DNA from: Oscillospiraceae bacterium
GTDB lineage: Bacteria; Bacillota; Clostridia; Oscillospirales; Oscillospiraceae
Direction: 5' to 3'
Assembly (NCBI GenBank): GCA_017619535.1
Contig: JAFZSD010000025.1
Span: forward strand, 878 to 64,877
DNA: 64,000 nucleotides
The notes below the pieces were generated by a model, which worked only from the letters and a program-made list of their open reading frames with translations, did not search any database and was not told the DNA's origin. Positions 47,571 through 57,233 of this stretch are shown in pieces. The translations under genes and the position numbers were made by a program. How positions within the stretch are numbered: the first letter of the stretch is position 1; each line of letters starts with the position of its first letter.

Positions 47571-47880
47571 TTGACATACACATCCCCGTGTGATAGACTC
47601 ACGCCATAATTCAATATCAAAGGCTGTGACGAAGACGGCCGGAGCGGTGTGCTTCAGAGAATCGGCGGGTGGTGCAAGCCGACAGTATGACGCTCCAGGT
47701 GCCCATCACTTCCGAGCCGGAGGCCCGAACGCATCTGTCAGTAGGCGTCTCCCGTGAATGCTGCGTTAATGCAAAGGACTTGATGGAGTCCGCAGAGAGG
47801 CGTCTTTTCAGACGCAATTTGAGTGGTACCGCGGGTAATGACCCGTCTCAAAGGATCGACTTTGAGACGGGATTTTTTGT
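47571..47880 (+). promoter_or_regulatory. Promoter plus T-box riboswitch 1 (specifier read as AUC, Ile)
   Basis: TTGACA-17-TAGACT (47571-47599); GTGACGAAG; helix GGAGCG/CGCTCC; CAGAGAA; GGTGGTGCAAG; specifier-loop 3' strand AGGTGCCCATCA-CTTCCGAGC (AUC at 47705-47707); T-box AATTTGAGTGGTACCGCGG (47816-47834); terminator CCCGTCTCAAAG...CTTTGAGACGGG plus T6. Confidence 0.8.
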
Positions 47881-47897
47881 TGCAGGAGGCAATTATC

Positions 47898-50168
47898 ATG
47901 GACAAGACCTATACCGAAGTGAACAAGCTCATCGAGATCGCGACCCGAATCAAGGAGATGCGCGAGATCAAGGGCTATTCCGTAAACGAGATGGCCGAAA
48001 AGACCGACGTCAGCCCCGTCGAATACAGGCGGCTGGAGTCCGGCGCCGTCGACTTCCCGTTCACTTTCATACACAAGTGCGCTCTCGCCTTCGGTCTTGA
48101 GATAACCGACCTCCTCGAGGGCTACAGCGCGAAGCTGTCGTCCTATACCGTGACGAGAAAGGGCCAGGGCCAGATGACCGCCGACGAGGAGGGCATCGAG
48201 ATTCGGAACCTCGCCCCGCTCTTCAAGAGCAAGCTCGCCGAGCCCTACTGGGTCAAGTACGAATACTCCGAAGAACAGCAGGACGCGCCCATCCACCTCA
48301 CCAAGCACAGCGGCCAGGAGTTCGACATCGTCATCTCCGGCAAGCTGAAGGTCCAGGTGGGCCGCCATGTCGAGGTCCTCGAGGAAGGCGACAGCATCTA
48401 CTACAACAGCTCCGCTCCCCACGGCATGATCGCCGTCGGCGGACAGGACTGCCTGTTCCTCGCGGTCGTCATGACCGGCGACGACACCGGCGAGGCGGAG
48501 ATCCGTCAGACGGTCTCCACCGCGATGAAGACTGAAAAGCTCATCTGCGAGGAGTTCATCGACACAGTCGAGGACGAGAACGGCGCGCTGACCAAGATCC
48601 GCTTCTTCAACGACGACTCATTCAACTTTGCCTTCGATATCGTCGATGCCATCGCGGACAAGGCGCCTGAAAAGCTCGCCATGGTCCACGTCGCGAACGA
48701 CAAGACCGAGCGCCGGTTCACCTTCAAGGATATAAAGAAGGAGTCGAACCGCACCGCCAACTACCTGCGCTCCCTCGGCGTCAAAAAGGGCGACCGCGTC
48801 ATGGTCGTACTGAAGCGTCACTATCAGTTCTGGTTCACCATGATCGCTCTCGAGAAGATCGGCGCCATCGCGATCCCGGCGACCAACCAGCTCCAGCAGC
48901 ACGACTTCGAATACCGCTACGAGACCGCCGGCGTCTCCGCGATCATCTGCACGGCGGACGGCGACACCGCGCATCAGGCCGATCTCGCGGCCGAGAAATT
49001 CCCGCGGGTCGCGACGAAAGTCATCGTCGGCGAGCCCCGGGAGGGCTGGCGCGACTTCAACAGCGAGTACAAGATGTTCAGCAGCCGCTTCGAGCGCACC
49101 GAGGATTCCATCAGCGGCGACGACCCCATGTTCATGCTCTTTACCTCCGGCACCACCGGATATCCGAAGATCGCGCTGCACACCTGCAAGTATCCCCTCG
49201 GCCACTACATCACCGCCAAGTACTGGCACTGCGTCGAGCCGAACGGTCTCCACTTCACCATCGCCGAGACCGGCTGGGGCAAAGCCCTCTGGGGCAAACT
49301 GTTCGGACAGTGGCTGTGCGAGGCAGCCGTGTTCGTATACGACTTCGACCGCTTCAACGCGGACGAGATACTCCCGATGTTCGCAAAATACCACATCACC
49401 ACGTTCTGCGCGCCTCCCACGATCTACCGCATGCTTATCAAGCAGGACATCTCCAAGTACGACTTCTCCTCCGTGAAGCACGCCACCACCGCGGGCGAAG
49501 CGATGAATCCCGAAGTGTTCCGCCAGTTCGAGAAGGCCACGGGCCTTAAGATCATGGAGGGCTTCGGCCAGACCGAGACCACCCTCACCCTCGGCAACCT
49601 CATCGGCAATCCCCACAAGATCGGCTCCATGGGCCGCCCGTCCCCGATGTACGACGTCGACCTCGTCGACAGGGACGGCAACCCCGTGCCCGACGGCGAG
49701 ACCGGCGAGATCGTCATCCACACTGACAAGGGGAATCCCTGCGGCCTGTTCGCCGGATACTATCACGAGACCGGCGTCACCTATGAGGCCTGGACCGGCG
49801 ATCTCTATCACACCGGCGACCTCGCGTGGCGCGACGAGGACGACTTCTACTGGTACGTCGGCCGCGCGGACGACGTCATCAAGTCCTCCGGCTACCGTAT
49901 CGGGCCCTTCGAGATCGAGAACGTCATCATGGAACTGCCCTACGTCCTCGAGTGCGGCGTGACCGGCGAGCCAGACGATCTCCGCGGCCAGATAGTCAAG
50001 GCGAGCATCGTCCTGACAAAGGGCACCGAGCCCACCGAGGAGCTCAAGCGCGAGATACAGGACTACGTAAAGCAGCACACCGCTCCCTACAAGTATCCCC
50101 GCAAGATCGTCTTCCGCGACAGTCTGCCGAAGACGATAAGCGGAAAGATCCAGCGGAACCTTCTCTGA
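47898..50168 (+). CDS. Three-domain fusion: XRE HTH plus cupin plus AMP-forming acyl-CoA synthetase (medium/short-chain type), 756 aa
   Basis: ATG 47898 after GGAGG. HTH IKGYSVNEMAEKTDVSPVEYRRLESG. Cupin GQEFDIVISGKLKVQVG...YYNSSAPHGM. ACS motifs FTSGTTGYPK, GYRIGPFEIENV and SGKIQR. Confidence 0.85.
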   Translation: MDKTYTEVNKLIEIATRIKEMREIKGYSVNEMAEKTDVSPVEYRRLESGAVDFPFTFIHKCALAFGLEITDLLEGYSAKLSSYTVTRKGQGQMTADEEGIEIRNLAPLFKSKLAEPYWVKYEYSEEQQDAPIHLTKHSGQEFDIVISGKLKVQVGRHVEVLEEGDSIYYNSSAPHGMIAVGGQDCLFLAVVMTGDDTGEAEIRQTVSTAMKTEKLICEEFIDTVEDENGALTKIRFFNDDSFNFAFDIVDAIADKAPEKLAMVHVANDKTERRFTFKDIKKESNRTANYLRSLGVKKGDRVMVVLKRHYQFWFTMIALEKIGAIAIPATNQLQQHDFEYRYETAGVSAIICTADGDTAHQADLAAEKFPRVATKVIVGEPREGWRDFNSEYKMFSSRFERTEDSISGDDPMFMLFTSGTTGYPKIALHTCKYPLGHYITAKYWHCVEPNGLHFTIAETGWGKALWGKLFGQWLCEAAVFVYDFDRFNADEILPMFAKYHITTFCAPPTIYRMLIKQDISKYDFSSVKHATTAGEAMNPEVFRQFEKATGLKIMEGFGQTETTLTLGNLIGNPHKIGSMGRPSPMYDVDLVDRDGNPVPDGETGEIVIHTDKGNPCGLFAGYYHETGVTYEAWTGDLYHTGDLAWRDEDDFYWYVGRADDVIKSSGYRIGPFEIENVIMELPYVLECGVTGEPDDLRGQIVKASIVLTKGTEPTEELKREIQDYVKQHTAPYKYPRKIVFRDSLPKTISGKIQRNLL

Positions 50169-50227
50169 TCCCGCCCTGCGGATTGTCATATTTGTCGGTA
50201 TTTTTTGTGATTTTTTGTTCAGACTGC

Positions 50228-55614: not shown

Positions 55615-56153
55615 TGGCTGCCACACAGATCATCTTCGCCGGCTTCGGCGGACAGGGCATCCTGTTCTCCGGAAAGTTCCTCGCAAACGGCGCGCTCCTT
55701 GAGGACCGCCAGGTCAGCTGGCTTCCGTCCTACGGCCCGGAGATGAGGGGCGGCACCGCCAACTGCAGCGTCATCATCAGCGACATGCCGATCGGTTCGC
55801 CGATCGTTGCCGACCCCGACGTGATCGTAGTGATGAACAACCCGTCCTTCGACAAGTACGAGGAGCTCCTCGTGCCGGGCGGCAAGGCGTTCGTCGACTC
55901 CTCCCTCATCACGAGGCAGGCTGTCCGCACGGATATAGACGCGTATTACGTCCCCGCCACCAAGCTGGCCTCGGACAACGGGCTCGACGGTCTCGCCAAC
56001 ATGGTCCTGATCGGGAACCTTATCCGAAAGACCGGAGTCATATCCTGGGACAACGCCGAGACGCTCGTAAAAAAGATCGTGCCCGCGAAGCGCCAGGATC
56101 TCATAGAATTGAATCTCAAGGCCCTTGATATAGGCTACAACTGGGAAAACTGA
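55614..56153 (+). CDS. 2-oxoacid:ferredoxin oxidoreductase gamma subunit
   Basis: ATG 55614 (MAATQIIFAGFGGQGILFSGKFLA). Confidence 0.85.
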   Translation: MAATQIIFAGFGGQGILFSGKFLANGALLEDRQVSWLPSYGPEMRGGTANCSVIISDMPIGSPIVADPDVIVVMNNPSFDKYEELLVPGGKAFVDSSLITRQAVRTDIDAYYVPATKLASDNGLDGLANMVLIGNLIRKTGVISWDNAETLVKKIVPAKRQDLIELNLKALDIGYNWEN

Positions 56154-56168
56154 AAAGGAGTGACCGTC

Positions 56169-57233
56169 ATGGAGATCAAAATCACGAAAAACCCGAATCC
56201 GTCGCCCAAGACCCCGGCCGACAAGCTCGGCTTCGGCAAGGTCTTTACAGATCACATGTTCATCATGGAGTACGACCATGACAACGGCTGGCACGACGCC
56301 CGGATAGTGCCCTTCGGCAACCTCAGCGTCCACCCCGCCTCCACGGTCTTCCATTACGGCGCCGAGATCTTCGAAGGTCTCAAGGCCTACCGCACCCCCT
56401 CGGGCGCCATCCAGCTCTTCAGACCTCTGGAGAACATCCGCCGCATGAACAACTCCGCGGAGCGCATGTGCCTGCCCCAGCTCGACGAGGAGTTCGCGCT
56501 CAAGGCCCTGGAGACTCTCGTCTCCCTGGAAAAGGACTGGGTCCCCTCCGAGCCCAACACGTCCCTCTATCTGCGCCCCTTTATGTTCGGCAACGACGCC
56601 TTCCTCGGAGTGCACACCGTCAACAACTGCACTTTCCTGATCATAGCCTCCCCCGTCGGCAGCTATTACAAGGAAGGCCTCAACCCCGTCTCAATCATGA
56701 TCGAGACCGAAGACGTCCGCGCGGTCCGCGGCGGCACCGGCTACGCCAAGTGCGGCGGCAACTACGGCGCCTCCTTCCGCGCCGGCAAGAAGGCCGAGGA
56801 GAAGGGTTATTCCCAGGTCCTGTGGCTCGACGGCGTCGAGAGGAAATACATCGAAGAGGTCGGCGCGATGAACGTCATGTTCAAAGTCGGCGACGAGATA
56901 GTAACGCCGGCTCTCACCGGTTCCATCCTGCCCGGCATCACCCGCAAGTCCTGCATCGAACTGCTCCGCGACAGGGGCTACAAGGTCAGCGAGCGTCTGT
57001 TCTCCGTCGATGAGCTCCGCGAGGCCTGCGCCTCCGGAGCGCTCAAGGAGGCCTGGGGCTGCGGCACCGCCGCCGTCGTCTCCCCGATCGGTCATCTCGT
57101 CATCGGCGACGAGATCTTCACCATCAACAACAACGAGATCGGCGCCGTTACCCAGGAGCTCTACGATACGCTCACCGGCATCCAGTGGGGACGTCTTGAA
57201 GACAAGTACGGCTGGATCTATCCCGTAAAGTGA
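56169..57233 (+). CDS. ilvE: Branched-chain amino acid aminotransferase
   Basis: FGKVFTDHMFIMEYD..., YGAEIFEGLKAYR and YAKCGGNYGAS motifs of long-form class IV aminotransferases. Confidence 0.9.
   Translation: MEIKITKNPNPSPKTPADKLGFGKVFTDHMFIMEYDHDNGWHDARIVPFGNLSVHPASTVFHYGAEIFEGLKAYRTPSGAIQLFRPLENIRRMNNSAERMCLPQLDEEFALKALETLVSLEKDWVPSEPNTSLYLRPFMFGNDAFLGVHTVNNCTFLIIASPVGSYYKEGLNPVSIMIETEDVRAVRGGTGYAKCGGNYGASFRAGKKAEEKGYSQVLWLDGVERKYIEEVGAMNVMFKVGDEIVTPALTGSILPGITRKSCIELLRDRGYKVSERLFSVDELREACASGALKEAWGCGTAAVVSPIGHLVIGDEIFTINNNEIGAVTQELYDTLTGIQWGRLEDKYGWIYPVK

Follow-up and report, generated by a model that had tools for sequence, protein, structure and literature searches.

Why should T-box leaders, which sense uncharged tRNA, stand in front of genes for acyl-CoA synthetases and a ferredoxin-dependent oxidoreductase? 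The question is raised by a stretch of 64,000 nucleotides from an Oscillospiraceae bacterium (GenBank assembly GCA_017619535.1, contig JAFZSD010000025.1, positions 878 to 64,877 of the forward strand), which we call the window. Between positions 47571 and 57233 two successive transcription units, each headed by its own T-box leader, encode two paralogous acyl-CoA synthetases (ACS1 and ACS2), a P-loop NTPase, the four subunits of a 2-oxoacid:ferredoxin oxidoreductase and the branched-chain aminotransferase IlvE. We consider it likely that the two units form a T-box-gated salvage system, which makes isoleucine and valine from 2-methylbutyrate and isobutyrate. An earlier reading of the bare DNA (the original prediction) had proposed a regulon of this kind. 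Its interpretation is supported here, and every part of it that can be tested computationally holds.

Two T-box leaders with isoleucine and valine specifiers

Each unit starts with a promoter. Promoter 1 (TTGACA-17-TAGACT, 47571-47599, plus strand) and promoter 2 (TTGACA-18-TAAACT, 50228-50257, plus strand) both carry an extended -10 TG, and equivalent TTGACA...TGnTATAAT promoters lie just 5' of the homologous leaders of related loci. Leader 1 (47617-47878, plus strand) and leader 2 (50276-50553, plus strand) follow. In a permissive scan of positions 47400-50600, the T-box model RF00230 matches leader 1 over 47617-47853 (+) with 85.7 bits (E=1.8e-18) and leader 2 over 50276-50521 (+) with 78.6 bits (E=1.2e-16), both times from one end of the model to the other. 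Judged by these E-values and by the full-length coverage of the model, the homology of both leaders to the T-box family is beyond doubt. The two leaders are 86% identical over aligned columns and look clearly paralogous.

The folds contain the parts of a transcriptional switch. Terminator 1 (47842-47871) runs into a stretch of U, and terminator 2 (50509-50546) into UUUUUU; each has a folding energy of about -25 kcal/mol, with z = -3.2 for the first and -3.5 for the second. The seven-nucleotide antiterminator bulge UGGUACC is found at 47824-47830 in leader 1 and at 50490-50496 in leader 2, in agreement with the UGGU that the original prediction had read there. Antiterminator and terminator are mutually exclusive in both leaders, as the 5' strand of the terminator can pair as the 3' strand of the antiterminator instead. 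The distal Stem I motifs AGAGA and GGUGCAA are also present in both. Thus the scan, the promoter and terminator calls and the folds agree with the earlier claim of two T-box leaders, each with its own promoter and terminator. The term "tandem", which had been used for them, is right in so far as the leaders succeed each other; they do not act on one gene, however, since each heads its own unit.

Which amino acid does each leader report? The covariance-model alignment places AUC (47705-47707) followed by A (47708) at the specifier of leader 1, and GUA (50364-50366) followed by G (50367) at that of leader 2, which is where the original prediction had put them after folding Stem I by hand. Eight unpaired nucleotides precede the closing CUUC strand, G-CCC-AUC-A in leader 1 and G-UUU-GUA-G in leader 2. 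The two strands of the specifier loop are ACG/GCCCAUCA and AGG/GUUUGUAG, and the same reduced loop occurs in orthologous leaders. Plain minimum free energy folding of Stem I is uninformative (z = -0.86 and +1.20).

Class I T-boxes (RF00230; for example, tyrS and glyQS of Bacillus subtilis) share with these leaders a Stem I that has a GA/K-turn at its base, a specifier loop and AGAGA and GGUGNRA motifs. Stems II, IIA/B and III are likewise shared, and so are the UGGN bulge of the antiterminator and the terminator that competes with it. The leaders in the window differ from them by scores below 93 bits, by an extra hairpin that follows Stem IIA/B and precedes Stem III, and by the reduced specifier loop (ACG or AGG on the 5' side, G-NNN-codon-N on the 3' side), which does not show the AGUA/GAA S-turn consensus. 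The extra hairpin is located at 47776-47791 (GGACU...AGUCC) and 50441-50456 (GGGUU...AACCC) on the plus strand. Two of its pairs differ between the leaders on both sides, and in both leaders it falls where the Rfam model has an insertion.

Related loci allow the specifiers to be compared across species. A scan with one genome per species yielded 541 relatives of ACS1, and the comparisons below use the best 80 of the 541 loci. They come mostly from rumen and gut metagenome-assembled genomes (MAGs) of Oscillospiraceae, Acutalibacteraceae, Christensenellaceae and Erysipelotrichaceae, and include the Erysipelotrichaceae isolate NK3D112 (L061). A profile of the two leaders shows that, in nearly all loci, ACS1 and ACS2 each have a homologous leader of their own. 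The specifier is AUC in 77 of 77 ACS1 leaders. ACS2 leaders carry GUA (52), GUC (6) or, in two cases, the leucine codon CUC, and a structure-based alignment agrees with the profile alignment for both sets. Around the codon the loop varies: the following base is G in most valine leaders and C in a quarter of the isoleucine leaders, and neighbouring loop bases change as well. The bulge UGGUACC is unchanged in 156 leaders.

A covariance model of Stem I built from the window's two leaders found 171 Stem I elements, of which 148 distinct sequences were used. In this set 90.1% of cells are paired, compared to 66.3% in shuffles and 32-48% with slid partners. Changes on both sides occur in 22 of 23 pairs, among them all four pairs of the closing helix, which sets the codon register. 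A specifier reading produced by chance or by a shifted register is untenable, because AUC is invariant amid variable bases, GUA and GUC are synonymous and the switch to CUC is chemically sensible: 2-oxoisovalerate made from isobutyrate is also the precursor of leucine. Hence the conserved AUC and the Stem I covariation, together with RF00230 and the folds, mark leader 1 as isoleucine-specific, and the specifiers of orthologous leaders mark leader 2 as valine-specific. Across the 80 loci the specifiers track the downstream paralog.

The genes behind the leaders and their predicted route

What do the leaders control? Genes were mapped with Pfam and NCBIfam and with independent gene calls on an 82 kb contig (ENA ERZ27256909, k141_507935), on which the exact ACS1 protein is also called. 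All genes of the system lie on the plus strand. Leader 1 precedes ACS1 (47898-50168, 756 aa), which joins HTH_19/HTH_3, Cupin_2, AMP-binding and AMP-binding_C domains and matches the structure 3ETC. Leader 2 precedes ACS2 (50576-52879, 767 aa), the same four-domain fusion, and the P-loop NTPase (52901-53569, 222 aa), which has weak CbiA/ParA matches in Pfam. The oxidoreductase follows with its delta subunit (53586-53792, 68 aa, ferredoxin-like with 2x[4Fe-4S], Fer4 family with PorD/KorD-type matches), its alpha subunit (53798-54865, POR_N and PFOR_II), its thiamine pyrophosphate (TPP)-binding beta subunit (54862-55614, TPP_enzyme_C, PorB_KorB family) and its gamma subunit (55614-56153, POR domain PF01558 with 119.7 bits). 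IlvE, a class IV, type II enzyme, ends the series (56169-57233). The arrangement of the genes behind the two leaders is thus the one originally described. From ACS2 to IlvE the gaps between genes do not exceed 21 nt, and where neighbours overlap they share 4 nt at most. No terminator was detected between ACS1 and leader 2, and none on the plus strand after leader 2 until the hairpin at 57551-57582; this terminator, scored on the minus strand, stands between the operon and a convergent MoeA gene.

The gene set is conserved together with the leaders. Gene order was counted in those 49 loci whose sequence continues for 7.5 kb or more beyond ACS1. Twenty have the order of the window, 19 carry IlvE between ACS2 and the P-loop gene, three lack IlvE and two lack ACS2. 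The remaining five have no co-oriented oxidoreductase genes (four with ACS1 alone, one with only ACS1 and ACS2), so that a synthetase is linked to the oxidoreductase in 44 of 49 loci. The core cluster with an AUC T-box also occurs in a Lachnospiraceae MAG. In loci with a single synthetase the AUC T-box heads the whole operon (L025, L040, L046, L084 and L085).

Taken together, the leaders and the genes suggest the following mechanism. Transcription of each unit would start at a strong promoter of the sigma-70 type and run into a T-box leader of class I, the class that acts by terminating transcription. Uncharged tRNA-Ile would pair with AUC of leader 1, and uncharged tRNA-Val with GUA of leader 2. 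The free ACCA end of the tRNA would then pair with UGGU in the bulge, the antiterminator would form and the polymerase would read through. Unit 1 would yield ACS1; unit 2 would yield ACS2, the P-loop NTPase, the four-subunit oxidoreductase of the VorB family and IlvE. ACS1 would activate imported 2-methylbutyrate, and ACS2 imported isobutyrate, to their CoA esters. With reduced ferredoxin and CO2, the oxidoreductase would convert these esters to 2-oxo-3-methylvalerate and 2-oxoisovalerate, which IlvE would transaminate to isoleucine and valine. 2-Oxoisovalerate could also feed leucine synthesis. We infer the response to starvation from the leaders, and the substrates and the direction of flux from the evidence that follows.

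The synthetases are 61% identical to each other, and their AMP-binding and AMP-binding_C domains identify both as AMP-forming ANL enzymes. In its catalytic part, ACS1 shares 51.5% identity over 520 residues (E=1.5e-183) with Macs of Methanosarcina acetivorans (PDB 3ETC). Macs adenylates propionate through octanoate, prefers 2-methylbutyrate and completes the CoA-ligase reaction with that acid (PMC10455477). The Trp of the KYW motif is kept in ACS1, as in Macs.

For the acyl pocket we aligned both proteins to Salmonella Acs, using a sequence that is validated by its 652 residues and by V310, T311, V386 and W414, which stand at their published numbers. V310 and W414 are acyl-pocket residues of Acs. 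W414 is replaced by Gly in both synthetases (G557 in ACS1, G567 in ACS2), which argues against acetate as the substrate. When 81 ACS1 orthologues are compared to 59 ACS2 orthologues, 12 positions cleanly split the two groups, and the catalytic domain holds one of them: Gly461 in ACS1 versus Ala471 in ACS2, aligned with V310. Macs has Gly at this position too. The smaller pocket side chain of ACS1 fits the larger acid, 2-methylbutyrate (C5), and leaves isobutyrate (C4) for ACS2, which is the assignment that the original prediction had suggested. From characterised relatives, the pocket residue G461/A471 and the T-box specifiers, we predict that ACS1 is a 2-methylbutyrate-CoA ligase and ACS2 an isobutyrate-CoA ligase.

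Propionate is another acid to be considered for ACS1. A route to isoleucine through propionyl-CoA and 2-oxobutyrate is known in anaerobes and methanogens. If ACS1 activated propionate, propionyl-CoA could be carboxylated to 2-oxobutyrate and enter the ordinary ilv pathway. An isoleucine-specific T-box suits any route to isoleucine, and the adenylation range of Macs begins at propionate (PMC10455477). Yet the acid that Macs prefers, and with which it completes CoA ligation, is 2-methylbutyrate (PMC10455477), and Gly in place of Ala in the pocket suggests that ACS1 takes the larger acid of the two paralogs. Moreover, the cluster's IlvE suffices to finish the route from 2-methylbutyrate, and no ilvBCD genes are linked to the cluster. 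We give the propionate route little credence.

The best NCBIfam family of both synthetases is MbcS, with 439.1 bits for ACS1 and 423.2 bits for ACS2, both short of the equivalog cutoff of 850 bits. MbcS of Staphylococcus aureus acts selectively on 2-methylbutyrate and isobutyrate, while acetate is not a substrate (PMC10026030). Its documented role is to supply primers for fatty acids (PMC10026030), and rumen bacteria are known to put isoacids into lipids (PMC7709123). These points speak for a second alternative, in which the operon would provide the branched acyl-CoAs that prime the synthesis of branched-chain fatty acids for the membrane; the synthetases on the one hand, and IlvE and the oxidoreductase running oxidatively on the other, would be parallel routes to the same acyl-CoAs. 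Under T-box control, though, the IlvE/oxidoreductase route would be induced while isoleucine and valine are scarce and would consume them, which is counterproductive. The strict pairing of isoleucine, valine and leucine specifiers with their genes points to amino acid supply instead, and the cluster contains no fatty acid synthesis genes. Primer supply is an improbable function for this operon.

The salvage of branched acids requires that the route runs towards the amino acids, and three independent arguments favour this biosynthetic direction. T-boxes induce on their uncharged cognate tRNA. The synthetases are AMP-forming and therefore work in the activating direction, whereas catabolic oxidoreductase pairings use ATP-conserving, ADP-forming synthetases (PMC3942289). 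Finally, IlvE completes the route to the amino acid. The opposite direction is that of amino-acid-fermenting Clostridia and Thermococcales, where isoleucine and valine are turned into 2-oxoacids, acyl-CoAs and eventually branched acids. IlvE and 2-oxoacid:ferredoxin oxidoreductases are reversible and run oxidatively in many fermenters, and an archaeal pairing of oxidoreductase and acyl-CoA synthetase is on record (PMC3942289). However, degradation conserves ATP through ADP-forming synthetases or through phosphotransacylase and kinase, while the enzymes here are AMP-forming members of the ANL family; and an operon for degradation would need the reverse of induction by uncharged tRNA. We regard a catabolic cluster as very improbable.

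The oxidoreductase and IlvE would complete the salvage route. The four subunits with their TPP and [4Fe-4S] domains correspond to the domain composition expected of VOR (EC 1.2.7.7), and the alpha subunit passes the cutoff of NCBIfam VorB (NF005507, 511.5 bits, cutoff 399). The specificity for branched-chain 2-oxoacids is predicted from the gene context, as the substrate cannot be read from the sequence. IlvE passes two equivalog cutoffs, with 483.9 bits for NF009897 (cutoff 307) and 406.2 bits for TIGR01123 (cutoff 250).

The P-loop NTPase is a constant partner of the oxidoreductase. In related loci, Lachnospiraceae MAGs included, its gene is always directly upstream of the delta gene. It belongs to the SIMIBI class, with the Walker A motif GHYGSGKT, and at 65-75% identity it recurs across many database clusters, where it is annotated as hypothetical or MinD-like. 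A sequence search of solved structures returned no significant match for it. The best structural matches of its AlphaFold2 model (pLDDT 85) are the G domains of SRP54 and FtsY, with TM of about 0.55, which suggests a fold that is generic for the SIMIBI class. The protein has no Cys motif of the Fe-S scaffold kind.

Several observations weigh against the salvage reading. On the RNA side, the default Rfam scan of the whole window uses the gathering score (93 bits for RF00230) and reports neither leader, because both fall below that score. The S-turn consensus AGUA/GAA was sought in both specifier loops and is not there. No tRNA gene lies within the window, and 60 related loci hold only Arg, Pro and Met tRNAs. 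On the protein side, neither synthetase attains the MbcS cutoff. VorB NF005507 is a subfamily model only, and the nearest relatives of the oxidoreductase with a solved structure (1YD7 for alpha) are a 2-ketoacid enzyme of P. furiosus and enzymes for 2-oxoglutarate, whose specificity is either broad or for 2-oxoglutarate. Lastly, the oxidoreductase and IlvE lie behind the valine leader only, an aspect of the regulon that the original prediction did not address. Under a shortage of isoleucine alone, ACS1 would then be induced but its partner enzymes would not, except if leader 2 leaks or valine becomes scarce as well.

The low Rfam scores are not peculiar to the window. Twelve orthologous leaders are expected in six related loci that were scored, and 7 of them reach the gathering score, with 94-103 bits. 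With about half of the orthologous leaders below it, automatic annotation will miss many of them. Useful T-boxes thus exist just under Rfam's curated cutoff.

The helix-turn-helix and cupin module of the synthetases

Why are the synthetases so long? The original prediction was correct in calling them two paralogous acyl-CoA synthetases, which are AMP-forming, but it overlooked an N-terminal fusion. Both proteins begin with an XRE-type helix-turn-helix (HTH) domain (HTH_3/HTH_19) and a Cupin_2 domain in Pfam, about 235 residues in total, encoded at 47898-48600 in ACS1 and at 50576-51310 in ACS2 (both plus strand). Macs (3ETC) and MbcS share the ANL fold with the synthetases; the module is missing from both.

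The fusion of cupin and AMP-ligase is common, with matches in more than 8000 database clusters. The best 120 of these clusters all have at least 70% identity and the cupin plus AMP-binding architecture, and HTH is annotated in most of them. Database names for the fusion go no further than "AMP-binding protein" or "cupin domain-containing protein". Regulators built of HTH_3 and cupin domains are known, for example PuuR of E. coli. The regulator 1Y9Q has the same order of HTH and then cupin, and it matches the module weakly (E=0.0025).

The paralogs differ mostly in this module. It carries 11 of the 12 residues that split ACS1 from ACS2 orthologues (ACS1 positions 11, 59, 60, 73, 94, 97, 100, 102, 112, 117 and 142), although it makes up 31% of the protein length, an enrichment with p of about 2e-5 by a binomial estimate. 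The module probably senses a paralog-specific ligand.

A wider interpretation, which is tentative and which we would sooner doubt than believe, is that the synthetases are one-protein sensors. They would add a second control layer over the T-box and, with the leucine and tyrosine T-box units that adjoin the cluster in relatives, would make up a general programme of gut and rumen Clostridia that gates routes from fermentation acids to amino acids by tRNA. The T-box would report demand, and the cupin would bind the branched acid, the acyl-adenylate, the CoA ester or the end-product amino acid. The bound ligand could tune the activity of the enzyme, or transcription through the HTH domain in the manner of BirA. 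BirA is an enzyme-repressor fusion that couples adenylate formation to repression. Like ACS1 and ACS2 it is an adenylate-forming enzyme with a domain of the DNA-binding type; the likeness is an analogy only, and DNA binding by the synthetases is putative.

Autoregulation through the HTH domain was considered and finds no support, since there is no operator-like repeat by the promoters. For promoter 1 the operator search turned up a GC-rich palindrome (47533-47544), which falls within the last part of the gene upstream, and nothing else; for promoter 2 it turned up none. When the promoter regions of about 130 leaders are aligned, the promoter itself is all that they share. Many ACS1 promoters of relatives (among them those of L007, L016, L021, L041, L044 and L071) carry the A/T-rich near-palindrome TTTTTTCAAAAAA just 5' of the -35 box. 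This near-palindrome, which is absent from the window's own promoter, could serve as an UP element or be bound by a protein.

Known systems and neighbouring T-box units

How does the proposed system relate to what is known? Its regulatory logic is that of the B. subtilis ilv-leu operon, in which uncharged branched-chain tRNAs induce genes that supply those amino acids. The two differ in the pathway: the ilv-leu operon serves the acetolactate pathway, while the units here would serve acid activation and ferredoxin-dependent carboxylation. For IlvE, T-box control has a precedent, because branched-chain aminotransferase genes preceded by T-boxes were noted earlier (Wels et al. 2008, PMC2494555). 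For an acyl-CoA synthetase or a 2-oxoacid:ferredoxin oxidoreductase, we found no description of T-box control in full-text searches or in the T-box regulon surveys consulted, though an earlier mention is possible. The original prediction, too, had known of no account of the route as a T-box regulon.

The predicted chemistry is old. Allison and co-workers established that rumen bacteria reductively carboxylate isobutyrate, 2-methylbutyrate and isovalerate to valine, isoleucine and leucine, and methanogens have an anabolic 2-oxoisovalerate oxidoreductase. The sequence from acid to acyl-CoA, 2-oxoacid and amino acid is the same as the one proposed here, and so is the habitat. The classical work was physiological and enzymological and came without a gene cluster or a mode of regulation, both of which we propose. 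According to a paper from 2020, the reverse reaction in Prevotella was still unproven at the enzyme level (PMC7709123). The T-box mechanism is ordinary and the chemistry has been known for decades; that the two are linked appears to be new, as does the conserved gene set.

This link matters for two reasons. The requirement of fibre-degrading rumen bacteria for isoacids has been known for about sixty years, and dairy cattle receive these acids in their feed. The bacterial genes that turn isoacids into valine, isoleucine and leucine are poorly defined, and the cluster offers testable candidates in abundant uncultured Clostridia of gut and rumen. Furthermore, a T-box is a built-in functional label, which tells us that the genes downstream help to provide one particular amino acid. 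In the present case the label would assign the cluster of synthetases, oxidoreductase and IlvE to the supply of isoleucine and valine, and it suggests which paralog takes which acid. A salvage route that depends on ferredoxin and fixes CO2 would thereby join tRNA synthetases, de novo pathways and transporters in the T-box regulon.

In relatives, T-box units for two further amino acids lie beside the cluster. A leucine (CUC) T-box precedes a divergent LeuA-like gene in L030 (4638-9642) and in at least 12 other loci (L012, L013, L017, L020, L033, L036, L041, L042, L055, L060, L068 and L076; also L082, 19303-22274). The LeuA-like protein has HMGL-like and LeuA_dimer domains and scores 222 bits against a LeuA cutoff of 532. 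The unit further includes an 817-aa fusion of a xylose-isomerase-like TIM barrel to an AMP-ligase and an Amidohydro_2 protein, and it is located either immediately 5' of the isoleucine leader or downstream of IlvE. The second arrangement is seen in L082 and L083, where IlvE is followed by the LeuA-like gene, after a gap of only 38 nt, and by the TIM-barrel/AMP-ligase fusion. Possibly, this unit is a leucine-related branch of the system.

The other unit is found in L001 (3632-9629) and L002 (142-6138), directly upstream of the isoleucine leader and ACS1. Its T-box is canonical, with GAA-UAC-G read by hand, and apparently tyrosine-specific. It precedes genes for a 570-aa AMP-ligase, IorA-like and IorB-like proteins, a PaaK-like phenylacetate-CoA ligase and an ACT-pair protein, and may be an aromatic analogue of the same salvage logic. 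The leucine and tyrosine units beside the cluster suggest a wider pattern of T-box-gated routes from acids to amino acids.

Two genes of the window adjoin the system. Upstream, an EamA-family transporter gene (46687-47550, plus strand) ends about 20 nt 5' of promoter 1 and has no T-box before it. Downstream, an open reading frame for an 82-aa ThiS/MoaD-like protein with a C-terminal GG (57278-57526, plus strand; Pfam ThiS, 24.8 bits) begins 44 nt after IlvE. It is probably co-transcribed with the operon, but its membership of the system is doubtful: the 80 related loci contain no homologue, and we do not count it as a member. It is probably a molybdenum cofactor gene, and its neighbour is the convergent gene for a MoeA-PBP fusion (57602-59482, minus strand).

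The only T-box that the default Rfam scan reports is located further from the cluster, at 37876-38122 (minus strand); it has 105.2 bits and a canonical S-turn. The Stem I model puts UAC (Tyr) followed by C at its specifier. This T-box precedes a 519-aa sodium:solute symporter (unit 36266-38122, minus strand), whose best NCBIfam match is PutP, with 203 bits against a cutoff of 515; its substrate could be tyrosine or an aryl acid. The same scan also reports two divergent cobalamin riboswitches, which lie 150 nt apart at 22339-22531 (minus strand, 81.2 bits) and 22682-22884 (plus strand, 85.3 bits).

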